Shown here one piece after another: positions 7,078 to 53,033 of a stretch of DNA of 64,000 bases. Origin of the DNA: a bacterium (lineage in GTDB: Bacteria > UBP15 > UBA6099); assembly GCA_041664945.1 (NCBI GenBank), contig JBAYJY010000002.1:8721-72720 (forward strand), written 5' to 3'. How positions within the stretch are numbered: position 1 is the first letter of the stretch; each line of letters begins with the position of its first letter. The translations under genes and the position numbers were made by a program. Below the pieces are notes generated by a model that worked only from the letters and a program-made list of their open reading frames with translations, was not told the DNA's origin and searched no databases.

Positions 7078-8082
7078 TTACAATGAGCCTTTCCAGATAA
7101 AAGAGCCGGAAACATTGATATAGCCGATCTTTCTGCCTGCCATTTCGACGTATATGTAACCGCCGGGTTTTATATCCGCGTCTCTGAATTGAGGATTGAA
7201 CAGGAATTGGCCGTCTTTGACGATGACTCCCCACTTGCCGCTCGATTTCACCGCCGCAAGACCGGAGTTGAATAATGTTACATCGTCGTATTGCGGCGCG
7301 ATCACTACTTTCCCTGATTTATCGATATATCCCCAGCGGTTCCCTTTTGCGATGCCTGCCCGGCCTTCGCGAAAACCTGTCGCTCCGTCGTACTTCGGCG
7401 GGAAAATCATTTTCCCTGTTTTGTCTATATAACCCCATTTGTCTTTGATTCTCACCGCCGCAAGGTTTTCCTCGAATGGTTTCGCCGCATCAAATTTTTG
7501 TTTGAAAGCCTGCTTGCCTGTCGCGTCAATGAACATATACCGGCACTCTGTTTCAGAACACGTGTCAGCGACCGCCGCCAGCCCCTGGGAAAAATCCGAT
7601 GCGTTGTTGAATTTCGAATCGATGACGATCTCTCCGCTTGCGTTTATATAGCCCCATTTCTCGCCGATTTGAACGGGCGCAAGTCCGCCTATGAAGGAGC
7701 CGGCGGCGATATATTGCGGCGCTATAACCACCTCGCCGGATGTGTTAATATAGCCCCACGAGCTGTCGATCTGCGCTCCCGCGAGTCCTTCGGAGAACGG
7801 CATTGTATTCTCGAATTGCGGTTTTATCGTCACGTTGCCTTGCGCGTCGATATAACCCCATTTTGAACCGACGGTCATGTCTGCCAAGCCTTCGGAAAAA
7901 GTTCCGATACCATTATATTTAGGAGGCACGATAACTCGGCCGAGCCTGTCTATCAGCCCCTGTTTGCCGCTGACATATATCAAAAGAAGGTCTTTGCCCG
8001 CGGCTGTGTTATCGGCGCCGAAACATGAGGAAGCGCTTAGAGCCGCCAGCAGCAATAACAGCGAGGCGCTTAACTTTTTCAT
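7078..8082 (-). CDS. secreted WG-repeat (KWG-type) protein
   Basis: 334 aa. The signal peptide is MKKLSASLLLLLAALSASSCFG. About 9 tandem ~35-aa repeats follow, of the form KWGYIDxxGxxVIxPxYD. Confidence 0.8.
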   Translation of the reverse strand: MKKLSASLLLLLAALSASSCFGADNTAAGKDLLLIYVSGKQGLIDRLGRVIVPPKYNGIGTFSEGLADMTVGSKWGYIDAQGNVTIKPQFENTMPFSEGLAGAQIDSSWGYINTSGEVVIAPQYIAAGSFIGGLAPVQIGEKWGYINASGEIVIDSKFNNASDFSQGLAAVADTCSETECRYMFIDATGKQAFKQKFDAAKPFEENLAAVRIKDKWGYIDKTGKMIFPPKYDGATGFREGRAGIAKGNRWGYIDKSGKVVIAPQYDDVTLFNSGLAAVKSSGKWGVIVKDGQFLFNPQFRDADIKPGGYIYVEMAGRKIGYINVSGSFIWKGSL

Positions 8083-8376
8083 AAATCAATCTCCCGCTCA
8101 TCGTCATTTCAATCGGTTATATTATATCGCAAATCGAACTCCGACAAACGTTGATTTTCTGATCTGACATTACACATGACGAAATGAACCTCTTGGCGTC
8201 GACAAATCCGACATCATTTTCTACTGACGTTCTAACGGTGAAACATTTTATTGCATTTATGATAGTTATTATGTTTTCATACGTTTAAAGTTAACTTATC
8301 GGGGAAGATATTAATCAGGCAAATTATTTTTCGCATACGACCAGTTGCATTAAAGTAAATATTTTTGGGGGAATAA

Positions 8377-11300
8377 ATGGCGTCAGCTAAGAAACGCTCA
8401 TTCCGGCTCATATTGTCATTTTTTATCATTTTCATTTCAACACAAGCGGGGGCAAAAGAGCTAAAGCTAACTCAGGGTTGGCAAATAGTAAGTGTTCCGG
8501 TCAAAGCCATCTCGTCAGGCGAAACGCCAAGCGACATAGCGGCAAATACTTCGATATATTCGTATGATGCCGGTCAAGTGGCAGAGGCGGTAGGCAAACC
8601 GCTTGTTTCCGGACGGGGCTATTGGATATACATGCGCGAAGCAAAGACAATAAGCGTCCCCGAAGTGAAGGCCGGACCGGACAGCGCATTCAAGGTGAAA
8701 CTCGAACCGGGCTGGAACATCATCGGAAACCCATACGAATATCCGCTGGACCCGGCTGTGTCGTTGCGCATATCAGGCGCCGCGTTTCAGGACTCGAAGA
8801 AAGTGATTCCCGTTTTGTTGACGTATGACGGCGATAGCGGAACATATCGATACGCGCAGATTCTCGAACAATGGAAGGGGTATTGCGTTTATGCGAATGA
8901 GGCGGCAGAACTGGAGATAATTCCGGCGATATATGAAGGGCCTGTGCCCGATATGCCGGATTTGTATGTGTTTCCGTTTAACGGAGGGGCTCAGATAGCG
9001 GATGCGGGCAACGGGGTAAAGTATGTAGCCGGCCAGTTGATCGCGGCGTTTGGCTCCGGAATTACGTATGAAGAAGCGTCGCGCGTCGCGCGCGAGGCAG
9101 GATTGTCCGTGGCCGGCGGGGATCGCGATGCCGGCGTGTACCAATTACAGATACCGCCGGGAATGAATGCAGAAGCGGCGGAGTCGGCGCTCGCAGCCGC
9201 TGGAGGCGTAATAGAGGTAGCGAAAAATTATCTATTTAAAGTGCAGGCTGTTCCGAATGATCCGGTTTTCACCGTGCCGCCGGTTGCAGGGGCGGGGTGG
9301 GGTTTTGAGAAGATTGGAATGCCGGGACTATGGGCGGAGTTCGCGCCGAAGAACGCGCCGGTTGTCGCCGCGCTTGACACCGGCGTCGACAAAACGCATC
9401 CTGAACTCGCCGGCCGCGTTTTGGAAGGCAGGAACTTCGTGAACTCCTCGGCGGGCGCGGACACGAGTGATGAGAACGGGCATGGAACGCAGGTAGCGGG
9501 GGTGATAGCGGCGGCTGGCAACAACTCGGCGGGCATGGCAGGCGTGTGCTGGAACTGCCGGATTCTGCCGGTGAAGGTGTGCGACGCGTCGGGACAGTGT
9601 CCCATGATGTCGATAATGAACGGAATAAGTTATGCGGCCGACATGAAGGCTCCGATAATAAATCTCGGAATCGGCGGCGACATGCCGCTCGACGACGCTG
9701 CGAAAGCAATAATCAGGATTTATGTAAAGTTGGCCCGGTCGAAGGGATCGATAATTGTGGCGCCCGCCGGGAACTCGTCTACGGACAATTTCGGAACTCT
9801 CACCGGAACGGACTCCGGGGTGGTGAATGTCGCGGCGACGGACGCGAACGACAATCGAGCGACATTCTCGAACTATGGCGGCATGGTAAACGTGGCGGCT
9901 CCAGGAGAGAATATTTATACGACCGATATGAACGGCGGATATAAGACGGTGAGCGGCACATCGATGAGCGCCGCGTTTGTATCGGGCGCGGCGGCGCTGC
10001 TGATTTCCGCAGGCGACAATTTAACTGTTGCGAATGCGATAGACCTGATCGCGGTGACTGTTGACCCGGTAAGCTCGAACGAGCCGATCGGCGGAAGACT
10101 GAACGTATCCTTGGCGATGAAATATTACAGACATTACACAAATAAGGCGCCGGAGATTGTGAATGTCGAAGTGATGCCGGGCGCAACGAACAAATCATAT
10201 ACGCTGAAAGCTAATGTCACCGATCAGGATGGGGACGCAATTACATACAAGTGGGCGGCTGGGAGCGGAGTTTTCAGCGCCGGCGCGGCCCAAAAGACAT
10301 GGACGCTGGACAAAGAGATAAAGGGCGTATACACGATAACGCTGACGGCGACCGACGCTTTCGGAGGCTCTGCTGAAAGCCGCGTTGGCGTGAATGTGAG
10401 CGGAACCGACCCGGCGCAGTTGACGGTGAAGGTCATTGATGCGAACGGCGTGGCGGTGACGGGGGCTATGGCGGAAGTGGGAGGCTCCGGGACGTTCACG
10501 ACCGGAGCGGACGGGCGGTTCTCCGTAAATGCCGGAGCGGCGGACGGCGTTTACGCTATTAAGATAAAGATAATAAAAGAAGGATTTGTCGACAAATTCG
10601 CAACGTTCCGGGTTTTAGCAGGTTCGCTTGAAAACGGAACGCAGAACATGACGGTTGAGCTTGAGCGTACGCCGACAGGTTCTGGAGCGGCGCGAGGACT
10701 TATAGTGCATGCTGACGGCACGACTGACACGGCGCTGCCGTCGAACGGAAGCGCTGCGGCGACGGTGACCGTCGGCGCGACAGACAGGGCTGTAGAGTTC
10801 ATCACGCCCGAGGTTGGCGGCGAACCGGCGAAAGTCGGCATTAAGTTCGGCGATGAAACAGGCGCCGGACCAGGAGCGGCGGCCACGCTCGGAGTTACAG
10901 GCCAAGTCACGGCCTCGATAATTTACGGCGATCCGACATCGGAAAGCGACATATTAAGAATGTTCCCCGGTGAATTTCTGACGAATGGCGACACGGGTTT
11001 CGGCGGTTCGGGAGAAGGCGCGCTTGTAACGGGCGGTTTCGCGCGAATCGATCTGACCGACGCGGCGGGCGCCCCGATCAAGAATTTCGCGGCGGGCGCG
11101 GAGGCGCTGGTGACAATGCGAATGCCGTTCGGCGTGCAGAACCCTGAAACTGGAAAAATGGCGGCGCAGGGCGATACGATTCCGATTCTCTTCTACGACG
11201 AGAATGCTGGCGAATGGATTGTAGAGCATGAAGCGGCCGGCTCGGTGAAACGCGCCGAAATCCAGCAGGACGCGGACGGAATGTTCGTGCAGTTCAAAGT

Positions 11301-14300
11301 GGCGCACCTGACGACATGGAATCTGGATTGGAAATCCATGTTGTGTCCGGAAGGACAGCCGACAATAAAGCTATATGACATGAACGGAATCTCGCTTGCC
11401 GGGCAGTCGGTATATGTGACTATTAACATATCGGGTTGGAACTCATGGCCTAATATAGTAACGGACGGATTTGTAAGTTTCCCAAGGGCGCCCAAGGATA
11501 TAGACTGGCAGTTGTGGGCGCAATGGAACGGATATACGTCAAAAGTGATGACGGTAAAGAATTGCGTTGTAGAGGAAAATCTCCAAGTCGGCCCGTGCGA
11601 TATGAAATGCGGGAACGACGCCGCATGCAGTGATGGGAATAATATGACGTATGACGTCTGCATGAGGCCGGGGCAGTGTACGGCGTCCTGCGTCAACATG
11701 CAATGCGCGCCCGTTTGCAACTCTGACGCCTCCTGCGACGACGGCAAACCGACGACGACGGACACATGCAGGAATGCAGGCGCGTGCGGCGCGTACTGCT
11801 CACACGTTAGCTGCAATGTTGGCTGCGGCTCAGACGCGAACTGCGAGGACGGCGATCCCGACACGCTCGACGTTTGTCTGCTGCCGGGCACATGCAATGC
11901 GACATGCAAAAAATATGACGTTCATTGCGATGTGCAGTTGGATAAAGTGAATTACTTCGCCGGCGATGAGATGCAGATCACTCTGACAGCCGTAAATAAA
12001 GGGCCGGCGGCGGTGACATGCGGAGTGGAGTCGGCGCTGAAAAGGGAACAGTCGATTGCGGTGTGGAATTCTTTCGACGACGGCATTTACATCACAATCG
12101 CTCCGGGTGATTCAGTGACGCAGACAATATATAAAACTATTCCGGACACCTGGGTCGCCACAGATTCCAACGCCGGGTCGGATTATGATTTGTACACAGT
12201 CCGGGAGGATGGAACGCGTTGGGACGGACGCGACAACTTCAACATTCACGTGCACAAGCCATGCGTGGTCGCATGCAAGACGGACGCGGAGTGCGCCGAC
12301 ACAAATCAAAATACTTATGATGTTTGCAAGGCTCCCTATCAATGTTTCTCTGCATGCAATCATCTGACATGCCCAGTGGCATGCGCTTCCGACTACGGCT
12401 GCGATGACGGCAACTCCGCGACAACGGACAGTTGCGCGAACCCGAAAACTTGCGACGCGAAGTGCTTCAACGGCTCGTGCGCGATCAAATGCACAACCAA
12501 TGCCGGATGTGATGACGGCAATCCGATGACCGCCGATTTATGCAGTCAGCCGGGCACATGCTCCTCGGCCTGCGTCAATGCGAACTGCACGCCTGTTTGC
12601 TCGAACGACTCGCAGTGCGACGATACCGATCCGCTCACGAGAGACACATGCGAGAATATCGGTTCGTGCGAAGCGACTTGCGCGCACACTGCCTGTGCGC
12701 CTGCGTGCGAGTTGGACTCGGAATGCGATGACACCGACCCGCTGACGATAGACTCCTGCCTGAATCCGAATACGTGCAATGCAGCCTGTACGCACGTCGC
12801 TTGTTCGCCGATATGTTCTGCTGATGGAGACTGTGACGACAATAATCTGCAAACATTGGATACATGCAAGAATCCGAACACATGCGCCGCTGAGTGCGAA
12901 AACTCGGCATGCACGCCACAATGCACTCAAAACTCTGACTGTAATGACAACAACGCGCTCACGCCTGTCGATGAATGCGTCAATCCGAACACATGCGCCG
13001 CGGAATGCAAAAACTGCACGCCATTCTGCGTAAACGATGTCAAGTGCGATGACTTCAATCTGGCCACGCGCGACAAGTGCGAAAACCCGAACACATGCAG
13101 CGCAACATGCTCCAATACGACATGCACGCCGGCGTGCGTAAATAACGCCGGATGCGACGACGATAACGCAGCTACTGCTGACGAGTGCTCAGCGCCGAAT
13201 ACTTGCGAAGCATTATGTAAAAATGTCGTTCCGGCGTGCAACAATAACGCCGACTGCAACGACAATAATCCGGGAACGGCGGACATCTGCTTGTTTCCGG
13301 GCAAGTTCTCGGCGAAATGCTCCAATACGTACAATTCGGTGTTTGTGTCCACGGCGAAAAACAGTTCGTGCTACATTGATGGCGGAACCGTAAAATGCTG
13401 GGGGTCAAATGGATATGGACAGCTTGGCGACGGCACGACAAATTATTCAGCAACGCTGGTAACTGTCAGTGGAATCACAAATGCGACAGCGCTCACGTCG
13501 GGGACGGACCACACATGCGCTCTGCTTTCCGACGGCGGCGTGAAATGCTGGGGTATAAATGATTACGGAACGCTTGGAAATGGAACGGGGATTGATTCAA
13601 GCGTCCCTGTAAGCGTTACGGATATGATGAACGTTGTTTCGGTTTCAGCAGGAGGCTCAAGCGCATGCGCTGTGATGAGAGACGGCTGGCTGAAATGCTG
13701 GGGGTATAATAAAAACGGAGAACTCGGAGACGGAACAACTAAGAACGCTTTCGTTCCCACGACTGTCGTTGGAATCACGAATGCGATATCCGTTTCGGTC
13801 GGATCCGGCTTTGCTTGCGCGCTTCTCAACAGCGGCGGCGTGAAATGCTGGGGCGATAATGCATTCGGAACTCTTGGGAACGGAACACCGGTCAATTCGT
13901 TATTGCCGGTTGCCGTCAGCGGGATAACCAACGCAGTTTCGGTGTCCGCCGGGAACAAGCAAGCGTGCGCGCTCCTTTCCGGAGGGAGCGTCATGTGCTG
14001 GGGGATGACTATTGTGGACGGGCAATTAAATATTGTGGAAACTCCGATAGAAATGCCCGGCGTAACAAACGCGTCGGCGGTTTCCGTCGGTAGTTTTTAC
14101 GTATGCGCAGTTATATCCGGCGGAAGTATGAAATGCTGGGGTGGCAACACTGAAGGACAGCTTGGGAGTGGCTCTGTTTCCACCATGCTTCCTCCCGCGC
14201 CTGTACCAGTTCTAAACGTCTCTGACGCTGTCAGCATTTCTGCAAGCGTATATCATACATGCGCGTTTCTTGCCTCTGGAAACGTCAAATGCTGGGGGAA

Positions 14301-14460
14301 TAACGATTATGGCAAGCTCGGCAACGGAACTACCGTTAGTTCAGCTACGCCTGTAGATGTGACGGCGTGTTTGACGGATGTCCACTGCGACGACGGCAAT
14401 TCGCAAACTACGGATGTATGCAACAAGCCGGGGCAGCCGGATGCTTATTGTACGCATTGA
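8377..14460 (+). CDS. giant secreted multidomain protein: subtilisin-like (S8) protease, Ig-like domains, Cys-rich repeat arrays and an RCC1-like beta-propeller
   Basis: 2027 aa. The signal peptide is SFRLILSFFIIFISTQAGA, and an SD-like GGGGGAA precedes the ATG. The S8 triad motifs are AALDTGVD (Asp codon 9376-9378), HGTQVAG (His 9481-9483) and GTSMSAAF (Ser 9961-9963). A PKD-like segment lies at ~10165-10400, a carboxypeptidase-regulatory-like segment at ~10417-10615, and a CARDB-like segment at ~11932-12255. Confidence 0.85.
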   Translation: MASAKKRSFRLILSFFIIFISTQAGAKELKLTQGWQIVSVPVKAISSGETPSDIAANTSIYSYDAGQVAEAVGKPLVSGRGYWIYMREAKTISVPEVKAGPDSAFKVKLEPGWNIIGNPYEYPLDPAVSLRISGAAFQDSKKVIPVLLTYDGDSGTYRYAQILEQWKGYCVYANEAAELEIIPAIYEGPVPDMPDLYVFPFNGGAQIADAGNGVKYVAGQLIAAFGSGITYEEASRVAREAGLSVAGGDRDAGVYQLQIPPGMNAEAAESALAAAGGVIEVAKNYLFKVQAVPNDPVFTVPPVAGAGWGFEKIGMPGLWAEFAPKNAPVVAALDTGVDKTHPELAGRVLEGRNFVNSSAGADTSDENGHGTQVAGVIAAAGNNSAGMAGVCWNCRILPVKVCDASGQCPMMSIMNGISYAADMKAPIINLGIGGDMPLDDAAKAIIRIYVKLARSKGSIIVAPAGNSSTDNFGTLTGTDSGVVNVAATDANDNRATFSNYGGMVNVAAPGENIYTTDMNGGYKTVSGTSMSAAFVSGAAALLISAGDNLTVANAIDLIAVTVDPVSSNEPIGGRLNVSLAMKYYRHYTNKAPEIVNVEVMPGATNKSYTLKANVTDQDGDAITYKWAAGSGVFSAGAAQKTWTLDKEIKGVYTITLTATDAFGGSAESRVGVNVSGTDPAQLTVKVIDANGVAVTGAMAEVGGSGTFTTGADGRFSVNAGAADGVYAIKIKIIKEGFVDKFATFRVLAGSLENGTQNMTVELERTPTGSGAARGLIVHADGTTDTALPSNGSAAATVTVGATDRAVEFITPEVGGEPAKVGIKFGDETGAGPGAAATLGVTGQVTASIIYGDPTSESDILRMFPGEFLTNGDTGFGGSGEGALVTGGFARIDLTDAAGAPIKNFAAGAEALVTMRMPFGVQNPETGKMAAQGDTIPILFYDENAGEWIVEHEAAGSVKRAEIQQDADGMFVQFKVAHLTTWNLDWKSMLCPEGQPTIKLYDMNGISLAGQSVYVTINISGWNSWPNIVTDGFVSFPRAPKDIDWQLWAQWNGYTSKVMTVKNCVVEENLQVGPCDMKCGNDAACSDGNNMTYDVCMRPGQCTASCVNMQCAPVCNSDASCDDGKPTTTDTCRNAGACGAYCSHVSCNVGCGSDANCEDGDPDTLDVCLLPGTCNATCKKYDVHCDVQLDKVNYFAGDEMQITLTAVNKGPAAVTCGVESALKREQSIAVWNSFDDGIYITIAPGDSVTQTIYKTIPDTWVATDSNAGSDYDLYTVREDGTRWDGRDNFNIHVHKPCVVACKTDAECADTNQNTYDVCKAPYQCFSACNHLTCPVACASDYGCDDGNSATTDSCANPKTCDAKCFNGSCAIKCTTNAGCDDGNPMTADLCSQPGTCSSACVNANCTPVCSNDSQCDDTDPLTRDTCENIGSCEATCAHTACAPACELDSECDDTDPLTIDSCLNPNTCNAACTHVACSPICSADGDCDDNNLQTLDTCKNPNTCAAECENSACTPQCTQNSDCNDNNALTPVDECVNPNTCAAECKNCTPFCVNDVKCDDFNLATRDKCENPNTCSATCSNTTCTPACVNNAGCDDDNAATADECSAPNTCEALCKNVVPACNNNADCNDNNPGTADICLFPGKFSAKCSNTYNSVFVSTAKNSSCYIDGGTVKCWGSNGYGQLGDGTTNYSATLVTVSGITNATALTSGTDHTCALLSDGGVKCWGINDYGTLGNGTGIDSSVPVSVTDMMNVVSVSAGGSSACAVMRDGWLKCWGYNKNGELGDGTTKNAFVPTTVVGITNAISVSVGSGFACALLNSGGVKCWGDNAFGTLGNGTPVNSLLPVAVSGITNAVSVSAGNKQACALLSGGSVMCWGMTIVDGQLNIVETPIEMPGVTNASAVSVGSFYVCAVISGGSMKCWGGNTEGQLGSGSVSTMLPPAPVPVLNVSDAVSISASVYHTCAFLASGNVKCWGNNDYGKLGNGTTVSSATPVDVTACLTDVHCDDGNSQTTDVCNKPGQPDAYCTH
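9250..10125 (+). other. peptidase S8 (subtilase) catalytic domain of the giant protein
   Basis: The D-H-S triad motifs appear in canonical order and spacing (DTG ... HGT ... GTSMS). Confidence 0.8.
11596..11931 (+). repeat. coding repeat block A: 3 copies of a 36-aa six-cysteine module
   Basis: The three copies are CDMKCGNDAACSDGNNMTYDVCMRPGQCTASCVNMQ, CAPVCNSDASCDDGKPTTTDTCRNAGACGAYCSHVS and CNVGCGSDANCEDGDPDTLDVCLLPGTCNATCKKYDVH. Confidence 0.8.
12262..13332 (+). repeat. coding repeat block B: 10 tandem copies (108-nt period) of the same six-cysteine module
   Basis: The pattern read from the translation is C-x2-x-C-x3-x2-C-[DN]-D-x-[ND]-x2-T-x-D-x-C-x-[NQ]-P-x-[TS]-C-x-A-x-C-x3. An example copy is CSPICSADGDCDDNNLQTLDTCKNPNTCAAECENSA. 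Confidence 0.85.
13364..14364 (+). repeat. seven RCC1-like repeats (predicted 7-blade beta-propeller)
   Basis: There are seven ~50-aa units with [GS]xVKCWGxNxxGxLGxGT ... V ... G[IV]TNAxxVSxGxxxxCAL. Confidence 0.8.
14368..14457 (+). repeat. orphan 14th Cys-rich module at the extreme C-terminus
   Basis: CLTDVHCDDGNSQTTDVCNKPGQPDAYCTH follows the propeller and has the same CDDGNxxTxDxC core. Confidence 0.7.
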
Positions 14461-14497
14461 GTTTCCGGAAGAAGGCAAAAGAATAGATAAAATAAAA

Positions 14498-14535
14498 AGC
14501 CGCCCCGGCCTTCAGGACGGGGCGGCTTTGTTTTA
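14498..14535. terminator. bidirectional rho-independent terminator between convergent genes
   Basis: The sequence is AAAAAGCCGCCCCG-gccttcagga-CGGGGCGGCTTTGTTTT. It forms a 10-bp GC-rich stem flanked by an A-run and a T-run, and lies between the stops at 14460 (+) and 14583 (-). Confidence 0.8.
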
Positions 14536-14582: not shown

Positions 14583-15617
14583 TTATCTCTTTTCCGAAAG
14601 AGTTCTGCCTTTGAAGAAATCGTCCCACAGTTTGTCGGGAAGGTCCGGGTTGAGGGTCAGGTCGGAGAAGAGCATGACCTGAATCAGTTTGCCGTTCTCA
14701 TATTCCTGCAGTCCGACGAACATAAGCGTTTCTGGATCGATGAATGTTTCAACTTTGGTGATTCCGCGATTCGTTTTCACATTTTTAGGAACCATAGTTA
14801 TCATGTAAATGGAGGCGGGCCGGTTAATGTTTTTCTTAAGGGTGAGCCAGCCGGTGGTTTTGTCGTGGTCGTAATCCTCGCGTGTGTAGAGAGGAACTTT
14901 GGAAAGCGAGACTTTGCCGTCCTTGAAATAGTGTTCGTAACGTTTCATCGTTCTGCCGATGCCGAGGCCGGCGATGTCGTTGCCGCGCAGGTCTCGCATG
15001 TCGGTGATCGGCTTGTGATAGACTTCTTTGCGGGATGCGATCATGAGGAGTTTCATTGCCGCTTTCCACACCATCGGAACCGGCATCGCATTAAACTCTT
15101 TGTCTTTCAGGTATGGGAAAACAATGAAAATTTCGTCATCGTTTTTGTATCCGTAATTAAGCATTGTGCCTTTTGCGAAAGTGAGCATGTAGGCGACGCC
15201 GCGGTCGATAAGGCTGCCTTCTTCGAGATTTTCATTGAGCGATAGATCGTAGCCGAGGAGAGCCTTGTCCGGCTTTTTGAAACGGACGTCGAAAATGCGG
15301 TAATCCCATTTGATTTTGGGCGGTTCCTTGGGTTTTCCTTCGCTGGTTATGAAAACTTCGGGAAAGTTCTTAATGAACAAATCCGTCCTGTAAGTCCACG
15401 AGAACAGCTTGCAGTGATAAGAATTGATATCTTTGTCCCATTTGTTTGCGACTGCCGTCCAAAGAGAAACGGGGGTGTATTTTTCCGCAGCGGCGGTAGC
15501 TTTCGCCGGCGCCTTGGTCTTGGCCGCTTTAGTCGCCGCAAGCGTCATCTGCGTCGAGAACAAAAACGCGCAGACACATAGCGCCATAATGCATTTGATT
15601 TTTGTGTTTCTGCCCAT
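14583..15617 (-). CDS. hypothetical secreted protein (possibly LolA/DUF1571-like fold)
   Basis: 344 aa. The signal peptide is CIMALCVCAFLFSTQMTLAA, followed by a Lys/Ala-rich linker. I recognise no catalytic motif, and the fold suggestion is weak. Confidence 0.5.
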   Translation of the reverse strand: MGRNTKIKCIMALCVCAFLFSTQMTLAATKAAKTKAPAKATAAAEKYTPVSLWTAVANKWDKDINSYHCKLFSWTYRTDLFIKNFPEVFITSEGKPKEPPKIKWDYRIFDVRFKKPDKALLGYDLSLNENLEEGSLIDRGVAYMLTFAKGTMLNYGYKNDDEIFIVFPYLKDKEFNAMPVPMVWKAAMKLLMIASRKEVYHKPITDMRDLRGNDIAGLGIGRTMKRYEHYFKDGKVSLSKVPLYTREDYDHDKTTGWLTLKKNINRPASIYMITMVPKNVKTNRGITKVETFIDPETLMFVGLQEYENGKLIQVMLFSDLTLNPDLPDKLWDDFFKGRTLSEKR

Positions 15618-15972: not shown

Positions 15973-16494
15973 ATGACAGTAAATGAAGGCAATAAAACAG
16001 AAGATCAGTTTCGGGTAAAAGCGCACGAGATAATCGACGAGCTATCGGCAGAGGACTTGGTCGAGGCCGCGTACTTTCTTGAAGATTTGTTGATCAACAA
16101 ATGCGCTGAAGCGGCGAAAAGCGGGAAGGCCGAAGTTGTCGGAAGCGAGCGGCGGGTGTTCAAGCGGCTCAGGGCGCATGTGCCGGTGGCATATAAAACT
16201 TTGGATGAGCCAGGCATGCACAAGCGCGTTTCGTCGCTGGACATAAGCACGGGCGGGATCAGCTTTGTGCTATGGTCGGCCGACCGGGTCAGGATGGGCG
16301 ATTACGTTGAACTCAGTTTCACGTTGCCCGGCAAGAGAGGGCTGATAACAGTTCAGGCTCAGATCAAGCGGGTGGCGCCGGCGAAAAGCGGAAGCGGTTA
16401 CGAGGTTGGCGTTGAATTCATTCATATCACGGATGATCAACAGCGGCTGATCGATGAGTTTATAGGCGATACCGGCGACGGAAAGCAGGACTGA
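15973..16494 (+). CDS. PilZ domain protein (putative c-di-GMP receptor)
   Basis: 173 aa. It has an RxxxR motif (ERRVFKRLRAH) and a D/NxSxxG motif (LDISTGGISF) in the correct order and spacing. About 50 aa of helical N-terminal extension precede the domain. Confidence 0.75.
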   Translation: MTVNEGNKTEDQFRVKAHEIIDELSAEDLVEAAYFLEDLLINKCAEAAKSGKAEVVGSERRVFKRLRAHVPVAYKTLDEPGMHKRVSSLDISTGGISFVLWSADRVRMGDYVELSFTLPGKRGLITVQAQIKRVAPAKSGSGYEVGVEFIHITDDQQRLIDEFIGDTGDGKQD

Positions 16495-20991: not shown

Positions 20992-22542
20992 GTGATTTCT
21001 GTTATTATTTGCGCAGTGGATGCCAAGCATGGAACGACAACTTTCATAAGCTCCAAAGCCAATCAACAGCTTTTAATTATTACTGCTGAGCTGGTGATAT
21101 CCTTTGCTCTTATTTATATTTCCGTTTACCTGGACTGGCCTCAGCATGATATTCTGCGTTACGCGATTCTTGTCCCGGTATACCAGGCAGGCGTATATTA
21201 CGGACTCGTCGGCGGAATTATTGCAAGTGTCGTGTCCGTTCTGTCGTTTCTGCCGCTGATACCCGTTGATCCGTTAATTCGAGCCATGTCGTACGGCGTT
21301 CCAACGTTTATTCTGATGCTTGTGTTCATCATTTTCTTCGGCGCCTATATAGGCGCGACCTTAGGCTACGCCCATAAGACACAGAAATACATTGACGGCC
21401 TTTCTCTCGCAATCATGAAAATTGCGCGCGAAGTGGAGACGAGAGATGTAATGATAAAGCTGGCTGAAGAATCTGTCGCCATGCTTGACGCAATGTACGC
21501 GGCCGTTTTTATTGACGGCGCCGCGAAGGAAAACAGTGGCGGCGAGATACTGGCGCTTGAAGCTCAAAGCGGGGAACTCAGATCACTGAAAGATGTGCCC
21601 GAAGACAATGCGCTGATCAGCGCCGCGCGAGAAGGCTTGACGATTGTTTCAAATTCCATCTCCGGGGATTCGCGCCTTCAGTCTTTGCCGGGCGGCGAGT
21701 TGCTGAAAACAGCGGCGATCATCCCCGTGGTCATGAAGGATCGCTCGATAGGCTCGCTGCTTGTGTGCAACAAAAAAAACGGCGACTCTTTCACGGAAGA
21801 AGACTATGCCGTTCTTAAAATGTTAACGGAGGCGACCGCCGGAACCATTCTCAACATAGAGCAGGAGCGAGAGCGGCAGGAGGAAAAACTTCGCGTGGAA
21901 CAGATGAAGGAACTGTTTTCAAGATATGTATCCGCTTCCGTCGCCGACTTCGTTCTTGAGAATCCGGAAATAATGAAAGGCCACTGGCAGGAAGTGACCA
22001 TGCTGGTGTCCGACGTGCGGGATTTTACAAGAATTTCAGAGACTCTTTCTTCAAAAGAGGTTGTGAGGCAGCTAAACGAATACTTCACACGCATGGTGGA
22101 TGTCATTCTCGACCACAAAGGGACGATAGATAAATTCGTGGGCGATTGCATCATCGCCTATTGGGGCGCGCCGGCGCCCGATCCGGAGCATCCGCTCAAC
22201 GCCGCAAGGGCCGCGCTTGCGATGGCCAGGGCTTTGGACCTGATGAACGCCGAATGGCAGGATGAAGACCGCCCTCAGTTCAAAACCGGCATCGCTATTC
22301 ACACCTGCAGGGCGCTAATGGGCAATATCGGCGACGATCGGAAAAAGGCTTTCACTATCATGGGAGAGGAAGTCGAAAAAACCATACAGATCGAAGCCAT
22401 GACGAAAACCCTGAATGCCGGGATCATCGCTACAGATGAAACCTATAAAGCCATTGCGGGGAAAATTGACTGCGAACTGATATCGCAGTCAGGCGCGGCA
22501 GGAATGCAGAAGCTTTACAAAATACAGACTGGACAATGTTGA
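20992..22542 (+). CDS. membrane (4 TM)-GAF-class III nucleotidyl cyclase, Asn/Arg-deficient ('C1-like')
   Basis: 516 aa with a GTG start per the track, which is uncertain. The cyclase motifs VTMLVSDVRDFT and DKFVGDCIIAYWGAP are intact. The canonical GDTVNxASR segment reads GEEVEKTIQ. A GAF-like region contains IIPVVMKDRSIGSLLVCNKKNGDSFTEED. Confidence 0.8.
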   Translation: MISVIICAVDAKHGTTTFISSKANQQLLIITAELVISFALIYISVYLDWPQHDILRYAILVPVYQAGVYYGLVGGIIASVVSVLSFLPLIPVDPLIRAMSYGVPTFILMLVFIIFFGAYIGATLGYAHKTQKYIDGLSLAIMKIAREVETRDVMIKLAEESVAMLDAMYAAVFIDGAAKENSGGEILALEAQSGELRSLKDVPEDNALISAAREGLTIVSNSISGDSRLQSLPGGELLKTAAIIPVVMKDRSIGSLLVCNKKNGDSFTEEDYAVLKMLTEATAGTILNIEQERERQEEKLRVEQMKELFSRYVSASVADFVLENPEIMKGHWQEVTMLVSDVRDFTRISETLSSKEVVRQLNEYFTRMVDVILDHKGTIDKFVGDCIIAYWGAPAPDPEHPLNAARAALAMARALDLMNAEWQDEDRPQFKTGIAIHTCRALMGNIGDDRKKAFTIMGEEVEKTIQIEAMTKTLNAGIIATDETYKAIAGKIDCELISQSGAAGMQKLYKIQTGQC

Positions 22543-23390
22543 TGCTGTTAAAATACAGGGCGACGGAATCGTTTTACGAGGGTTTTCAAAAAACCAACAT
22601 TTTCGCCGACAGAACCGTGCGAATCACTGCTTTTATCTTTGTCATCGCCGGGCTGATCGACATTCCCTTCAAATTTATATTCCCCGCCGGTTTCAAATCA
22701 GAACTGGGCTCCATGCTCGTTTTTATCCTGTTGATTTTTCCCATATCCACGCGCCTTATCGGCGGAATATCGCGAGCGTCATGGAAATTGTATGCCGGAT
22801 TCGGGATATTCTTTCTTTCCGGGCTGATCCCGACATTATGGGGCTCGCCGGTTTTTCTTCTATTAATGATTCCCTCGGTTTGCTTTCTGGCGCTTCTTCT
22901 TCGCGCCGAGCCCGGCATTCTTCGCAGTTTCGGTTATTCGGAGAAACCGCTTGGCATGCGCGAAGTTCTTATAGCGCTGCTGACGTTTAGTCTATTCGCT
23001 CTTTTCACCTACATAGCGACGGTAATGGTGCAGAAGTCAAAATTCATTCTTCATTCTCCCATATCATATCTGTTGCAGTTTCTTATCGTAGTCCCCGAAT
23101 ACCTTGTTGCATGGGGCATCTTATACGGAGTTTTGATGAAACGTCTGTTGGAGCTGAAATTTGAGCCGATGGTTCCGATTTTTCTCAACATTGTTTTCAC
23201 GCTTGTATGGTGGGTTTCCACAGCGGTCAATGTCAAAGACCCGGGCATGATGTTTGCCGGGATATTCGCATGGGCCATAGCAGTGCATATGATTTCAGGA
23301 ATGGCCTATTATTTCACGGGATCCGTAAGGCCGGTTTTATTTGCGTGGTCGCTGAACTACATTGTTTTTGTCGCTTCATCCGTAACATGA
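22536..23390 (+). CDS. polytopic membrane protein, CPBP (CAAX-protease/Abi)-like fold lacking catalytic residues
   Basis: 284 aa. It overlaps the upstream cyclase by 7 nt. The segment VVPEYLVAWGILYGVLMKRL ... FTLVWW ... GMAYYFTGSVRPVLFAWSLNY parallels CPBP motifs EExxxRG / FxxxH / HxxxN, but the Glu/Arg/His positions are substituted. Confidence 0.5.
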   Translation: MLMLLKYRATESFYEGFQKTNIFADRTVRITAFIFVIAGLIDIPFKFIFPAGFKSELGSMLVFILLIFPISTRLIGGISRASWKLYAGFGIFFLSGLIPTLWGSPVFLLLMIPSVCFLALLLRAEPGILRSFGYSEKPLGMREVLIALLTFSLFALFTYIATVMVQKSKFILHSPISYLLQFLIVVPEYLVAWGILYGVLMKRLLELKFEPMVPIFLNIVFTLVWWVSTAVNVKDPGMMFAGIFAWAIAVHMISGMAYYFTGSVRPVLFAWSLNYIVFVASSVT

Positions 23391-23402
23391 GGGCGCGCAG
23401 CC

Positions 23403-24308
23403 ATGAGTGTTGAAAAAATCGATATCGCGTCTGAAGTCGCCGCGCTGAAATTCAGAACGGGCAGTTTTGACGTCTGGAAAAAAACAAACCTGCTCAGGGA
23501 ACCGATATTCATACATGCTGTTCTCATAATTGCGCTTTATGGCATCGGGAACGCTGTTGTTCAGATATTATTCAAAACAAACCATATATCATTTTCATTA
23601 AAAGAGGCTTCATATCCTTTATTGTATCTATCTCCTATACTTGGAGGTTTGTACATTGCCGGCGGTTTGAACAGACACAGCGTCTGCATCTCTGTCGTTT
23701 ATATGTTTTTATACGCTCTATTTGAATATGTGATTAGCCAATATTTTCACAGTATTCAATCAATTGTCGGAATATTTCAATTTATTCCCGGATGCGCTCT
23801 GATAGTTTGGTGGATAGTGACCAAACCTGAAATTATGGGCAAGCTCGGCATGAAAAAATCCGACTCTCTGACGGTTTCACTGTATGCTTTTATTTTGATT
23901 CTGATCATTGCCTCCTATGCGGCGCACCTTCTTATTGTATATGGTTTCAAGTTGGAGTTCAGGCCAGTTGAAATGGCAGCGTATTTTTTAGGCAATTTCA
24001 TAACCTGCTTGTTTGTTACCAGCTATTGTTTCGGCATGTGGAACCTGCTGAAGAAGCGAGGCGCAAACACATTTCAGGGTATTCTGGCGCTCATGGCGCT
24101 TTTCGGCCTCATAGAGGCCCCGGTCATGATAGCTTTTGCGCTTATTGGAATAGCGAGCCCGGCGATGGCGGTTGCCGGCATCGTCTTGAACTTGATGCTT
24201 ACATTGACCGTGATGCACTTTTCCTTCAGCGCGCTGAAAAACTCATTGACGGCGACATTCCTGTTGGCGATGGTCATGCTGCTTTTGAAGGCGGCGGGGG
24301 TTTTCTAA
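23403..24308 (+). CDS. polytopic membrane protein, second degenerate CPBP-like paralog
   Basis: 301 aa, starting 12 nt after the previous gene. It has 8 hydrophobic helices. The C-terminal half (CFGMWNLLKKRG ... HFSFSALKNSLTATFLLAMV) has the same topology, and I see no intact metalloprotease motif. Confidence 0.45.
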   Translation: MSVEKIDIASEVAALKFRTGSFDVWKKTNLLREPIFIHAVLIIALYGIGNAVVQILFKTNHISFSLKEASYPLLYLSPILGGLYIAGGLNRHSVCISVVYMFLYALFEYVISQYFHSIQSIVGIFQFIPGCALIVWWIVTKPEIMGKLGMKKSDSLTVSLYAFILILIIASYAAHLLIVYGFKLEFRPVEMAAYFLGNFITCLFVTSYCFGMWNLLKKRGANTFQGILALMALFGLIEAPVMIAFALIGIASPAMAVAGIVLNLMLTLTVMHFSFSALKNSLTATFLLAMVMLLLKAAGVF

Positions 24309-24334
24309 AACCGACAGCAGCGCCGGAAAGCCTG

Positions 24335-25801
24335 ATGATGGAACGAAAGAAAAAAATACTTTTTATAATTATCTCAAGCGCGCTATGTCTTGTGGCGACA
24401 ATGAGCGCTCACTATTGGGATATGCCGATGTGCGTGTGGACGAGCCCTCTCGTCGCAGTTCCCGTCGTCTATGCGGGAATCCATTTCCGGCGCGCCGGTT
24501 CCGCCGCCACGGCTTTCATTTTGTTAGTCGCGCAGGTGCCGGTAATACTCATATACGCTTCGCGGCATCTTGAAGGAGGAACGAAGTATTTCACATCTAT
24601 TGTGACGGCTTTGATCGTTGCGATATATGTGGGTCACAGGCAGCGGAAGAGCAGGGATAATTCCCGGCATCTCAACAAAATACACGACACGGTCAGGCGG
24701 ATTCAGCAGAATATCGAACCGAAACTCCTTCTTTCTGAACTGGAGGAACAGTTTAAGGAAATAGGAAGCGCTGATTCGGTTGAAATCTGTCTGCTGGACC
24801 AGGAAGGCATTCTAAGAGAATACAAATCCGGCGAGGAAGTGTCTCCGGACGACCACGCTTACTATAAGATTCTCAAGAATAGGAATTTTGTCGTAAGCGC
24901 CAATGTTCCGAACGATGCGCGTTTTGAGTATATCGGAGGAATGGAAAAAAACGACGCGGCGGAGCAGTTCGCGATATTTCCAATCGAGTATGGAGGCGCG
25001 GCAAGAGGAGTGATATCCATAATCGAATCAAGAGACGGGAGGCTGGGCAAAGAAGAGATTACATTTCTCAACGCGTACAAAAAAGCCATTGAAAATGCCC
25101 TTGAGGTTGTTGAGAAACGAGAGGATAAAATCAAGCACGAGCTTCAGAAGAAACGGATTAGAGACACGTTTTCATCCTATGTGTCGAGAAGCGTCGCCGA
25201 GGAGATATTAAAGGACCCCGACAAGCTTGAGCTTGGAGGGAAAAGCCAGATCGTAACCGTGATGTTCACCGAGATTGTGAATTTCAAGGCGCTTCAGAAG
25301 ACTGTGGAGCCGTCGTTGCTGTTTGACTCCCTTAATGAATATTTCGCCGCCGCGATTGACACTATATTCGAATACGACGGAACTCTGGACAAGTTCATAG
25401 GAGATAACGTCATGGCATTCTGGGGGGCGCCGATTCCAATGCCGGACAGCGAACTGAGAGCCGTTCAGTGCGCGTTGAGTTTGAATAGAAAGGTCAGCGA
25501 ACTAAATTCCCGTTGGAGACAGGAAGGTAGGGAGGAGTTCATTTTCTCGATAGGAATAAACTCGGGGGAAGTGGTTGCGGGCAACATTGGAAGCATTCGA
25601 CGCATGGAATATACGATCATTGGAGACACCGTCAATACGGCCTCGCGAATAAAATCTATCTCTATATCGAAAAGCATCCCGATATTGGTTGGAGAAACGA
25701 CATTTCAAAAAGTTAAAGACAGGGTTCAAATCGTTGAAAGATACGATGCGACTGTCAAAGGAAAAGCGGAAGCGATATCAGTATATCAACTGTCAGTGTG
25801 A
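24335..25801 (+). CDS. membrane (4 TM)-GAF-class III nucleotidyl cyclase, canonical Asn/Arg ('C2-like'), Glu at first metal-Asp position
   Basis: I chose the start at ATG 24335 (MMERKKKILFII), because the track ORF's 5' extension from 24026 overlaps the previous gene. Motifs are VTVMFTEIVNFKAL (Glu where Asp is expected), DKFIGDNVMAFWGAP and YTIIGDTVNTASRIKS. Confidence 0.8.
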   Translation: MMERKKKILFIIISSALCLVATMSAHYWDMPMCVWTSPLVAVPVVYAGIHFRRAGSAATAFILLVAQVPVILIYASRHLEGGTKYFTSIVTALIVAIYVGHRQRKSRDNSRHLNKIHDTVRRIQQNIEPKLLLSELEEQFKEIGSADSVEICLLDQEGILREYKSGEEVSPDDHAYYKILKNRNFVVSANVPNDARFEYIGGMEKNDAAEQFAIFPIEYGGAARGVISIIESRDGRLGKEEITFLNAYKKAIENALEVVEKREDKIKHELQKKRIRDTFSSYVSRSVAEEILKDPDKLELGGKSQIVTVMFTEIVNFKALQKTVEPSLLFDSLNEYFAAAIDTIFEYDGTLDKFIGDNVMAFWGAPIPMPDSELRAVQCALSLNRKVSELNSRWRQEGREEFIFSIGINSGEVVAGNIGSIRRMEYTIIGDTVNTASRIKSISISKSIPILVGETTFQKVKDRVQIVERYDATVKGKAEAISVYQLSV

Positions 25802-50934: not shown

Positions 50935-52923
50935 ATGCTGATAACGAAGATCAGGAAGAAAACACATCTCATCATGTGGCTGTTTTTGGGAATCTTTGTG
51001 ATAGGCGGGGTGTTTTTGACCTACGGCGTGTTCATGCCCGGAAGCAGAGGGCAGGGGCCAACGGCAAAAAAATCAAGCGTTCCAAACGATGTTCTGAGCG
51101 TGGACGGCCAAAAAGTAAGCTTGATGCAGTTCGAAAGCGGATATTCAAAGCTCAAAAGGAATTACGAGAGCATGGGCGGCATGAGGTTCGACACTTACCC
51201 CATGCAGATGTATCTCAAAATGCAGGCGCTTGAGATGATGACGACGCAGCAGCTTCTGCTGCAGGAGGCGAAGAAGCGCGGAGTGCGCGCTGACAGCGCC
51301 GAAGTCGCGAAGCGGATAAAACAGGAGCAGGAATTTCTGCTCGGGCCGGAAACGAAAGCCGGCGGCGCGGGCGCGGGCGACAGCGTTAAAAAGTTCTTCG
51401 CGGCTAAAGAGCGCGAGAAAGAGTTTCGCGACAGTCTCAACAGAACCGGCGTTTTGTACGAAACATTCAAATTGGAGATACAAAACGAGGTCAAGCAGAG
51501 CAAAGTTGTGGAGCTTATTGCCGCGGATCAGATGAAAGTCGAAACGGCGAATGCGCGAAAAAAGGCGCTCGATGTTATCGAGAAGCTCAAGACCGGCGAG
51601 CCGTTCGAAAAGGTGGCGGCGCAGTTCTCCGAGGACGAAGCGTCGAAGAACAACGGCGGCGATCTCGGGTGGGTGAAGCGTGGAATGCTTCCGCAGCCGA
51701 TCGAGCAAGCCTCGTTCGCTCTCCAACCCGGCCAGGTAGCGCAGCAGCCGGTTGAGACCCCGGAAGGTTTTCACATAATCCAACTGCTCCAGAAGAAAGA
51801 AGCGGTCGGCCCGGAATTCGAGTCGCAGAAGAATCAGATCATCGCTTCCATCCGCGCGCAGAAGGGCGATGAAACCTTAAAAGTTTCAATGGATGAAATT
51901 AAAAATGCTTATGAAGCTTTTCACGCGCGCGACATAGTGATCCGGATGAAGACGAAGGACCAGATCGCCCAGGAATGGATTCAAAATGAGCGCACAAAAG
52001 GGAAACATAAGATCGATATTATCAACCCCGAGCTTAACGCGTACAAGTATCTATATGGCAACATGTTCTCGCAGACAGCGGCGCCCCCCGATCTTGACAA
52101 AGCGATAAAGCTTTACGAGAAGGCGGCGGACGCGGACCCGGCAAATCCTTATCCGTACTATGAGCTCGGAAATATTTACAAGCAGAAATATTCGAAAGAC
52201 GAGATAAAGAAAGCGGGCGGCGAGAACGACCCGTACGCGAAGGCGATAAGCGAAGAGAAGAAAGCGGCTCCCGCCGGTTCGAGAAAGGCGGGCAAAGATG
52301 AAGAGAATAACATGAAGGAAGCTCTTCGCGAGTACAAACGCGCGAATGAAGTCGCTATTGGCAATAACATTTACGATCCGATATTGCTGATCACTCTCGG
52401 AGACACGGCAAAGACGCTCGGAGAACATAAGGTGGCGATAGACAGCTACGCCGAAGCGGTGGATTTCTCCGCCGGGAATAAGCAGTATCTCACTCAGATC
52501 AAAAACGGCCTTGAGGGATATAAATCGGCAAAGGTCGTGAAGGCTCTGAAAGACGTGAATGAACTGCTCGCCGAGCTTGACGCGATTGAAAAGGAAAACG
52601 CGAAAAAGGCGGCTGAGGCCAACCCGGCGCCGGAAGCGCCTGCCGCTCCCGTGCCGCCTGAAGGCGTGAAGGCTGTTAAAGTTCAGAAGCCAGGCGCGCA
52701 AAACGCTGACAATCAGCAACCGGCTGGATCGTCTGCGGCGCAAGCCGGAAAACCTTTGACCGTTAGAACATTTAAGGTTCAGCCCGGCGGCAAAGCGGTT
52801 GAAGTCCTGAAAAAAGCGCCCGTTGCGAAACCGGCTGCGACGCCGGTAGGGTCAAACGCGTCGCCGACTCCGGCTGAGGCGCCGACTCCGCCTCCGCCCC
52901 CGCAGCCAGCGCCGCAGCAATAA
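50935..52923 (+). CDS. membrane-anchored PpiD/SurA-like parvulin peptidyl-prolyl isomerase with TPR-like region and Pro/Ala-rich tail
   Basis: 662 aa with an N-terminal TM. The parvulin motif is FSEDEASKNNGGDLGWVKRGMLPQPIEQASFAL...PEGFHIIQL. The C-terminal tail reads ...APTPPPPPQPAPQQ. Confidence 0.75.
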   Translation: MLITKIRKKTHLIMWLFLGIFVIGGVFLTYGVFMPGSRGQGPTAKKSSVPNDVLSVDGQKVSLMQFESGYSKLKRNYESMGGMRFDTYPMQMYLKMQALEMMTTQQLLLQEAKKRGVRADSAEVAKRIKQEQEFLLGPETKAGGAGAGDSVKKFFAAKEREKEFRDSLNRTGVLYETFKLEIQNEVKQSKVVELIAADQMKVETANARKKALDVIEKLKTGEPFEKVAAQFSEDEASKNNGGDLGWVKRGMLPQPIEQASFALQPGQVAQQPVETPEGFHIIQLLQKKEAVGPEFESQKNQIIASIRAQKGDETLKVSMDEIKNAYEAFHARDIVIRMKTKDQIAQEWIQNERTKGKHKIDIINPELNAYKYLYGNMFSQTAAPPDLDKAIKLYEKAADADPANPYPYYELGNIYKQKYSKDEIKKAGGENDPYAKAISEEKKAAPAGSRKAGKDEENNMKEALREYKRANEVAIGNNIYDPILLITLGDTAKTLGEHKVAIDSYAEAVDFSAGNKQYLTQIKNGLEGYKSAKVVKALKDVNELLAELDAIEKENAKKAAEANPAPEAPAAPVPPEGVKAVKVQKPGAQNADNQQPAGSSAAQAGKPLTVRTFKVQPGGKAVEVLKKAPVAKPAATPVGSNASPTPAEAPTPPPPPQPAPQQ

Positions 52924-52960
52924 TTCCGTTTACGGCGCGTATGTTTTTGTGTTCGATTCG

Positions 52961-52990
52961 AGGGCGCGATTTTTTTGATCGCGCCCTTTT
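52961..52990 (+). terminator. rho-independent terminator / intercistronic hairpin
   Basis: The sequence is AGGGCGCGAT-ttttttg-ATCGCGCCCTTTTCG, a 10-bp stem followed by a T-run. Confidence 0.7.
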
Positions 52991-53033
52991 CGATAGATGG
53001 ATTTTTTCAAAACGAGGACAAAGGTGTCGGATA

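Follow-up and report, generated by a model that had tools for sequence, protein, structure and literature searches.

The 64,000-nt stretch analysed here (the window) covers positions 8,721 to 72,720 of contig JBAYJY010000002.1 in the genome assembly GCA_041664945.1, from an uncultured bacterium placed in the lineage UBP15, and carries at 8377..14460 (+) one uninterrupted open reading frame (ORF) of 6,084 nt for a 2027-aa multi-domain subtilase. Judged from its sequence, this protein joins two cassettes that recur elsewhere, a catalytic head and a long arm (Table 1). The calculated product has a mass of approximately 210 kDa, a pI of 4.4 and 103 cysteines. The start codon at 8377 lies in the sequence GGGGG-N5-ATG. 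The public gene call for the same locus (P0001, 1960 aa) begins at a GTG at codon 68 and loses the signal peptide as well as the first conserved GWQ motif. We favoured the ATG at 8377 because homologues of the 2027-aa protein align from residue ~4-7. A first-pass annotation of this DNA had proposed a single ORF with a signal peptide, an intact subtilase, a PKD-like domain, a seven-blade RCC1-like propeller and no C-terminal sorting domain, and all of these were upheld. Its other assignments are taken up with the evidence that bears on them.

Table 1. Coordinates of the features of the subtilase gene and its flanks (positions of the window).
Feature	Coordinates	Strand	Basis
Intergenic region, presumed promoter/5' region, common to the divergent WG-repeat gene	8083..8376	+	34% GC
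Signal peptide, aa 1-26 (KKR / hydrophobic core / AGA-KE)	8377..8454	+	read from translation
N-terminal domain (N-domain), aa 27-190, ~165 aa	8455..8946	+	conserved in P0002, P0004-7
Subtilase prodomain, fervidolysin N-pro / I9 type, aa ~200-290	8974..9246	+	PF22148
S8A subtilase catalytic domain	9304..10131	+	PF00082, thermitase alignment
PKD domain, aa 589-675	10141..10401	+	PF00801
Carboxypeptidase-regulatory-like beta-sandwich, aa 679-766, start of arm cassette	10411..10674	+	PF13620, sub-threshold
X1, aa 767-989: small sandwich, then ZU5/FAM171-domain-2-like sandwich	10675..11343	+	AlphaFold2 model
H977-L978-T979, candidate cis-autoproteolysis site	11305..11313	+	alignment and turn position in AlphaFold2 model
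X2, aa 990-1063: beta-sandwich	11344..11565	+	alignment and AlphaFold2
Cys modules 1-3 (six-Cys)	11596..11919	+	Cys pattern and AlphaFold2
Ig/Fn3/arrestin-type beta-sandwich, aa 1184-1295, ~110 aa	11926..12261	+	AlphaFold2 and Foldseek
Cys modules 4-12 (six-Cys) and module 13 (four-Cys, without C1 and C5)	12262..13332	+	Cys pattern
Seven-blade RCC1-like beta-propeller, aa 1655-1997	13339..14367	+	PF25390, PF00415
C-terminal four-Cys module, aa 1998-2027	14368..14457	+	Cys pattern
Terminator-like hairpin, G+C-rich, with A-run and T-run flanks, bidirectional, between convergent genes	14491-14534	.	

The catalytic domain matched PF00082 (Peptidase_S8) over residues 326-562 with 153.7 bits, far above the cut-off of 21.8, and thermitase (1thm, E 9e-46) was closest to it. 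In the alignment with thermitase, D334 (in ALDTGV), H369 (NGHGT), S529 (SGTSMS) and the oxyanion residue N466 (AGNSS) fall on the catalytic residues of that enzyme, from which the active site is read as intact and thermitase-like. An assignment to the mycosins of type VII secretion systems (TIGR03921) was rejected, its 146 bits being far under the equivalog cut-off of 278.75. A cluster of four cysteines, C391-x2-C394-x7-C402-x5-C408 (starting with C-W-N-C; 9547-9600), replaces the thermitase segment APKASILAVRVLDNSGSG at a strand and loop on the substrate-cleft side of the S8 domain. This cluster is kept in five relatives (P0002 and P0004-P0007) and absent from thermitase, and it could form two disulfides or a metal site that alters specificity. 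The PKD domain that follows scored 29.8 bits against a cut-off of 23.5 for PF00801. The protein resembles the thermitase/fervidolysin subtilases (MEROPS S8A) in its catalytic domain, the D-H-S order, the oxyanion Asn, a fervidolysin-type prodomain and downstream beta-sandwiches, and differs from them by the cleft-side four-Cys cluster and by an extra 165-aa domain before the prodomain. In addition, nothing equivalent to its C-terminal arm of approximately 1,350 aa is found in subtilases characterised so far.

At the N-terminus, the protein begins with MASAKKRSFRLILSFFIIFISTQAGA followed by KE, which, judged by eye from the translation, looks like a classical signal peptide; it contains no lipobox cysteine, nor any other Cys. 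The first-pass annotation had left a region of ~290 aa after it as one of unknown function. This description holds for residues 27-190 alone, since residues 206-279 matched the prodomain family PF22148 (Fervidolysin_NPro-like) with 26.2 bits against a cut-off of 21. The mature N-terminus of thermitase (PNDP) aligns with P292-P295, which suggests that the prodomain is probably cut off near residue 290. The N-domain precedes the prodomain in the chain and so would be cleaved away as well during maturation. The N-domain is common to P0002 and P0004-P0007 and carries the motifs GWQ..S.P, GRGYW, PGWN.IGNPY and W.GY. A profile of this domain searched against 5.8e9 proteins recovered only 13 fragments, all of them short and unannotated, and missed even the long homologues already known. 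Among PDB sequences, its best match was RemA, at a non-significant E of 0.21. As a lead only at that E-value, its motifs (G.GYW ... P.WNLIGNPY) are weakly similar to residues 1037-1111 of this Flavobacterium gliding adhesin (8gl6_D).

The arm starts with a beta-sandwich (residues 679-766) that had been called carboxypeptidase-regulatory-like. The corresponding Pfam match is present but sub-threshold (PF13620 CarboxypepD_reg, 18.9 bits against a cut-off of 32.3, E 0.002); homologous segments of P0084 and P0116 reached 25-29 bits, and the same sandwich is homologous to the first domain of lipoproteins that consist of the arm only. Some 330 aa after it, previously left unassigned, correspond to two segments that we call X1 and X2. 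Searches of X1-X2 against Pfam (E<=10), NCBIfam and PDB sequences gave nothing usable. AlphaFold2, run on residues 767-1074 with an 11-sequence alignment, returned an all-beta model of a small sandwich, a bigger sandwich (X1) and a third sandwich (X2), with a predicted local distance difference test score (pLDDT) of 86.7 and a predicted template modelling score (pTM) of 0.82. From the model and from profile comparison, we read the unassigned stretch as three domains in a row: a small sandwich, a ZU5/FAM171-like domain and a further sandwich. X2 is bracketed by C990 and C1063, both invariant in the 11-sequence alignment. When the X1-X2 model was compared with PDB structures using Foldseek, no match reached E<=1e-3. 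The top matches were Gram-positive pilins, and a pilin/CnaB identity was rejected with template modelling (TM) scores of only ~0.2. The only ZU5 domain retrieved was that of UNC5b (3g5b; rank 24, E 0.11, TM 0.28).

A profile built from 13 sequences over the carboxypeptidase-regulatory-like sandwich and X1 pointed to a human protein: its top PDB match was FAM171A2 (9y6n_A, E 0.0016), and the alignment covers FPG...IP.W..D..G.W...L..W up to an H-L-S-W-W block. Searched against PF10577 (FAM171A1/A2/B N-terminal family), the window sequence alone gave no match, 2 of 11 family members matched at E 0.004, and homologues from the FCB group matched at E 5.5e-5, all of these lying below the cut-off of 31.2 bits. 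In the FAM171 ectodomain, which forms trimers, a ZU5-like sandwich comes after a carboxypeptidase-regulatory-like domain (bioRxiv 10.1101/2025.09.18.675241). FAM171A1 and FAM171A2 thus present a two-domain order consistent with that of the arm, in which an extra small sandwich stands between the two domains and which, unlike FAM171, has no transmembrane helix. These similarities suggest a probable, if weakly supported, relationship of the arm's sandwich and X1 with the metazoan FAM171 ectodomain. A scan of GTDB genomes also found X1, at 29-34% identity, in lipoproteins of ~550 aa from Bacteroidota, Ignavibacteriota and allied groups. Twelve loci with such lipoproteins (L006-L017), including one in a Chryseobacterium gleum metagenome-assembled genome (MAG; L016, 7302-8960) and one in Saprospiraceae (L011), have an invariant HLSWWNLDW; their products gave sub-threshold matches to the FAM171 N-terminal family and have no other annotation.

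Beyond X2, much of the arm up to the propeller consists of short cysteine modules. The six-Cys module spans 36 aa with the spacing C-x3-C-x5-C-x10-C-x5-C-x3-C, and is found three times before the Ig-like domain and nine times after it, while two units have four cysteines only, one just before the propeller (1621-1648) and one after it (1998-2025). The 14 six-Cys modules counted in the first-pass annotation are therefore 12 six-Cys and two four-Cys modules. No match was obtained for these modules in Pfam (E<=10), NCBIfam or PDB sequences, and the other ORFs of the window contain none. In AlphaFold2 models, each module is a short helical turn that leads into a beta-hairpin (pLDDT 80-90). A Foldseek search with a module-Ig-module model returned matches from the Ig-like domain only and none for the Cys module.

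We searched a profile of three tandem copies against 1.84 billion cluster representatives. At E<=1e-3, 619 of them matched; 259 reached E<=1e-10 and 81 reached E<=1e-30. A signal peptide or GCGGGG lipobox stands at the start of nearly all carriers, and their partner domains are of various enzymatic or adhesive kinds, among them PKD, Big, FGE-sulfatase, F5/8C, polysaccharide deacetylase and RCC1. We then took 862 modules from 143 carrier proteins and counted their cysteines. The four-Cys form (C2, C3, C4, C6) accounted for 536 modules and the complete set of six for 267, with C1 or C5 alone in 58. The family as read from these sequences is basically a four-Cys one, with the consensus C..D.DC[DN]D.N..T.D.C.NPGT..S.C, and because C1 and C5 occur together or not at all in most modules, they would pair in a disulfide in the six-Cys type. 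By analogy with LDL-A and cbEGF modules, one may speculate that the conserved acidic cluster D-x-D-C-D-D-x-N binds calcium. The closest annotated families are the Dictyostelium repeat (PF00526) and the Myxococcus DUF4215 (PF13948), in which short tandem units rich in disulfides are likewise built around a C-[DN]-D-x-N-x-x-T-x-D-x-C core, and four-Cys relatives had sub-threshold Dicty_CTDC matches (E ~6e-4). However, the modules of the window matched neither at E<=10, and their 36-aa period and Cys spacing differ. On this comparison, the Cys module is a mostly four-Cys family of 619 representatives that has neither a database entry nor a structure.

The domain that interrupts the Cys arrays had been described as CARDB-like. 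A sandwich of ~110 aa does split the arrays, with C1184 and C1215 conserved and the domain kept in eight carriers, but its description as CARDB found no support: PF07705 did not match the protein even at E<=10, and no other Pfam family matched this segment significantly. Its AlphaFold2 model (pLDDT 79.8) is of a generic Ig/Fn3/arrestin type, the top Foldseek matches being Spo0M (1.2e-5), Fn3-like domains of GH3 enzymes and RbmA. The propeller itself was recognised by PF25390 (WD40_RLD, 192 bits, cut-off 150) and PF00415 (RCC1, 141 bits), has seven C-x9/10-C motifs at 1665-1972, one pair per blade, and is most similar among PDB sequences to UVR8 (E 1e-38). Relatives end with '...PV.V.GF' right after the last blade, whereas the 2027-aa protein continues into a four-Cys module of its own that ends the chain with ...AYCTH. 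Exported propellers of the RCC1 type are also found in BLIP-II and in the Legionella RCC1 effectors. The propeller described here shares its seven blades, its place in an exported protein and the CAL..G.VKCWG blade motif with bacterial secreted proteins annotated as 'alpha-tubulin suppressor-like RCC1 family protein', and differs from other secreted RCC1 propellers in tipping a Cys-rich rod and in being followed by one more Cys module.

How these parts came together can be read from the relatives. The full domain order was shared with one other protein only, P0002 (1920 aa; MAG GCA_040752295.1), which carries no annotation beyond 'S8 family serine peptidase'. The two proteins are collinear over residues ~199-1995, where they are 45-51% identical. 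P0002 has a Big-like insert and a PKD domain in addition, and its propeller is shorter. Residues 1703-1919 of P0002 (L001, 1617-7379) contain ~4 near-identical RCC1 blades and still end in the ...VVGF of the family; either the repeats were collapsed in that MAG assembly or the propeller is truly shorter. The head (N-domain, prodomain, S8 and PKD; residues ~5-700) is ~40% identical in P0004-P0007, in which it is followed by PQQ propellers and FN3 domains. The arm, in the order carboxypeptidase-regulatory-like sandwich, X1, X2, Cys modules, [Ig], Cys modules, [PKD], RCC1, occurs without any S8 domain in at least ten proteins (P0081, P0086, P0092, P0096, P0108, P0109, P0113, P0120, P0121 and P0143) and also in L003-L005. 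Most of these arm-only proteins have GCGGGG lipoboxes, and some replace RCC1 by an FGE-sulfatase-like domain or another propeller. The fusion of two cassettes follows from these distributions, as the head occurs with PQQ propellers elsewhere and the arm occurs alone in lipoproteins of related uncultured bacteria.

These distributions also qualify the novelty of the protein. The first-pass annotation had regarded the combination of a protease with a propeller as unusual. The pairing itself is not, as P0004-P0007 (PQQ) and P0010 (S8 with RCC1, in Actinomadura, a cultured actinomycete) show, but the full domain order is rare, P0002 being the sole protein found in a search for orthologues with that order, and it does not correspond to a common annotated family. 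Since the Cys-rich stalk with its RCC1 propeller recurs as a stand-alone lipoprotein, what is novel is the fusion, together with the modules that lack annotation, and the protein is not a new kind of machine. A sequence that is repeat-rich and derived from a metagenome might also be an assembly chimera or a decaying pseudogene, yet for this gene we regard either as extremely improbable. Its frame is unbroken, the catalytic residues are intact and the GC content is even along the gene. Repeat collapse or mis-assembly is unlikely because the repeat copies are only 60-83% identical at the DNA level and Tandem Repeats Finder called no array. An assembly chimera, which had been named as an outcome that would overturn the original proposal, is excluded by this divergence together with the collinearity of P0002, a protein with the same domain order from an independent MAG.

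The gene is probably monocistronic, as first proposed, because its upstream neighbour is divergent, its downstream neighbour is convergent, the terminator is shared and no synteny was found with the contig of the orthologue P0002, on which the gene neighbourhood of the window is not conserved. The upstream region, already described as AT-rich, contrasts with the 52.5% GC of the window; a scan for sigma-70 consensus promoters found none in 8083-8376, and no riboswitch or RNA family of Rfam matched there. The hairpin downstream, AAAAAGCCGCCCCGGCC...GGACGGGGCGGCTTTGTTTT, is a bidirectional terminator-like element, in line with the first-pass annotation, and is common to the convergent gene at 14583-15617 (-), the product of which has 344 aa, a signal peptide and no Pfam match. 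On the other side, the divergent gene at 7078-8082 (-) codes for a secreted protein with seven WG-containing beta repeats (PF14903, E 9e-84). Further neighbours code for an inositol monophosphatase, a PilZ protein and an ABC-2 transporter, and neither flank suggests a functional partner for the protease gene.

Elsewhere in the window we found genes for ArgJ, a RelA/SpoT-like protein, two adenylate cyclases, two SurA-like chaperones and a RACo-type activator. The tandem SurA-like paralogues point to a diderm host with a periplasm, and the gene content is that of a stretch of chromosome from a diderm that is probably anaerobic. Relatives of ArgJ reached up to 83% identity, those assigned to a named taxon less than 50%. 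The two SurA-like peptidyl-prolyl isomerase genes are adjacent (50935-54467, +) and each has an added TPR segment. Two genes for class III adenylate/guanylate cyclases of 516 and 591 aa (20992-25801, +) lie near each other downstream of the PilZ gene (15973-16494) and the ABC-2 transporter, and a 965-aa ORF at 55061-57958 (+) had no Pfam match at E<=1e-5. Over positions 1-64000, GC skew was positive in almost all 2-kb bins, with a climbing cumulative skew, and most long ORFs are on the + strand, so the window probably lies inside one replichore with + as the leading strand.

Bringing the domains together, we consider it reasonably likely that the protein is a Sec-exported pre-pro-subtilase that carries a long binding arm behind its catalytic head. 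Signal peptidase I would cut after residue 26. The prodomain would chaperone the folding of the S8 domain before being cut off near residue 290, taking the N-domain with it. In the periplasm, the 103 cysteines could form ~50 disulfides, including C1-C5 in each six-Cys module, one per blade and one bracketing X2. In the mature enzyme of ~1,740 aa, the rod would act as a rigid spacer, and the propeller, perhaps together with the FAM171-like module, as a ligand-binding head aiming the protease at a polymeric or cell-surface substrate. The eukaryotic proprotein convertases furin, PC5/6 and PACE4 have a signal peptide, a prodomain, an S8 domain, a beta-sandwich and then tandem disulfide-rich repeats that are thought to tether or target the enzyme. 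The 2027-aa protein has the same general layout, by analogy only: the three convertases belong to S8B (kexin) and have a P domain, whereas PF01483 found no P domain in the protein at E<=0.1, and the spacing of the Cys repeats is unrelated.

Several observations weigh against this picture of a targeted extracellular protease. The N-domain, with no usable match in Pfam (E<=10) or NCBIfam, has no assigned role in it. The propeller is shorter in P0002, so that the head of the arm is not strictly conserved, and because the protease replaces the N-terminal membrane anchor of the arm-only relatives, the arm may be arranged differently here and may serve another role. Finally, scans against Pfam and NCBIfam found no type IX secretion system C-terminal domain, PEP-CTERM, LPXTG or autotransporter barrel, and there is no lipobox. 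With neither an anchor nor an outer-membrane export signal detected in these scans, 'extracellular' is an assumption, and the protein could stay periplasmic. The first-pass annotation had suggested a surface-displayed or extracellular machine. An extracytoplasmic multi-domain protease with binding modules fits the sequence; surface display, lacking a lipobox or an anchor here, would apply instead to the lipobox-bearing arm-only relatives.

The occurrence of one type of head with long arms of very different make-up is also what would be expected if the S8 domain were a maturation protease, cutting its own polypeptide or sibling arm proteins into functional pieces instead of external proteins. 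Such a role has been proposed for the N-terminal S8 domains of giant secreted proteins (bioRxiv 10.1101/2023.11.21.568195). We hold this to be improbable for the 2027-aa protein, as its catalytic domain is closest to the broad-specificity thermitase and subtilisins, no conserved inter-domain cleavage motif was seen, and the arm-only relatives function without any S8. An antagonistic or predatory weapon, in which the arm docks on the surface of another cell and the protease damages that cell, was considered as well, given that P0003 combines RCC1 propellers with RHS toxin repeats, that RCC1-like propellers are found in toxin complexes and that the carriers of the Cys module include varied hydrolases. 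There is little to favour it at this locus, where no toxin/immunity or secretion-system genes adjoin the gene in the window and the protein has no RHS or toxin domain in Pfam or NCBIfam, and we rate it as quite unlikely.

One further possibility is compatible with the targeted pre-pro-subtilase, to which it adds one step. The most conserved block of X1, H-L-[S/T]-x-[WFY]-N-L-D-W, is invariant in 16/16 homologues including distant FCB-group proteins, its conservation persisting down to ~25% overall identity, and the AlphaFold2 model places H977-L978-T979 in the turn between the last two strands of X1 (local pLDDT ~90). A histidine, a hydrophobic residue and Ser/Thr in a beta-turn form the cis-autoproteolysis motif of the GAIN, ZU5/FIIND and Nup98 domains. 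X1 might then be an autoproteolytic sandwich of the ZU5/GAIN type that cuts between L978 and T979, giving two chains held by beta-strand pairing that could be separated or shed; we regard this as a tentative and rather doubtful reading. It is favoured by the match of the sandwich and X1 to FAM171A2, whose second domain is classed with ZU5. Furthermore, FAM171A2 has Q-L-G at the place of the bacterial H-L-S/T, so that neither the His nor the Ser/Thr is needed for an X1-type fold. Cleavage at HX(S/T) is proven for GAIN domains and for the microbial GAIN-like 'MAIN' domains, which make surface proteins releasable (bioRxiv 10.64898/2026.05.12.724683). With GAIN, MAIN and ZU5-UPA, X1 has in common the H-hydrophobic-S/T tripeptide, a tight turn before the hydrophobic terminal strand of a beta-sandwich and a large secreted multi-domain protein as its setting. 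On the other hand, no GAIN structure was among the top 50 Foldseek matches of the X1-X2 model in the PDB, the sole ZU5 match is the marginal one to UNC5b, and the similarity to FAM171 is a weak one. Conservation of the tripeptide may instead reflect a structural or ligand-binding role, and the arm-only relatives have their anchor at the N-terminus, opposite to the C-terminal one of MAIN proteins.

Were the sandwich and X1 a bacterial counterpart of the FAM171 ectodomain that kept or gained a GAIN/ZU5-type H-L-S/T and cuts at L978-T979, which we see as unlikely, maturation would yield three pieces: the N-domain with the prodomain; the protease, PKD domain, sandwich and X1; and the last strand of X1 with X2, the rod and the propeller. 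The latter two would stay non-covalently paired and be separable by force or ligand binding, and the arm-only lipoproteins could shed their stalk and propeller from the lipid anchor by the same cut. Next to the MAIN domains, X1 would then form a separate, second family of microbial modules that release proteins by self-cleavage.

As a protease, the 2027-aa protein is ordinary, big secreted subtilases with binding domains being common. It is a variant of the multi-domain secreted subtilases and not a new kind of system, of interest for its unannotated modules and for the self-cleavage hypothesis. Hundreds of proteins secreted by uncultured bacteria, and probably by archaea, contain the 36-aa disulfide module, which so far has no family entry or structure. 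The recurrent lipoprotein arm, a stalk with an RCC1 head, points to a widespread and unstudied type of surface appendage. The probable bacterial relative of the FAM171 ectodomain, with its GAIN/ZU5-like H-L-S/T, is a candidate for a new self-cleaving release module, and for a human neuronal protein family without known ligands or function, the FAM171-like module may offer an evolutionary handle.

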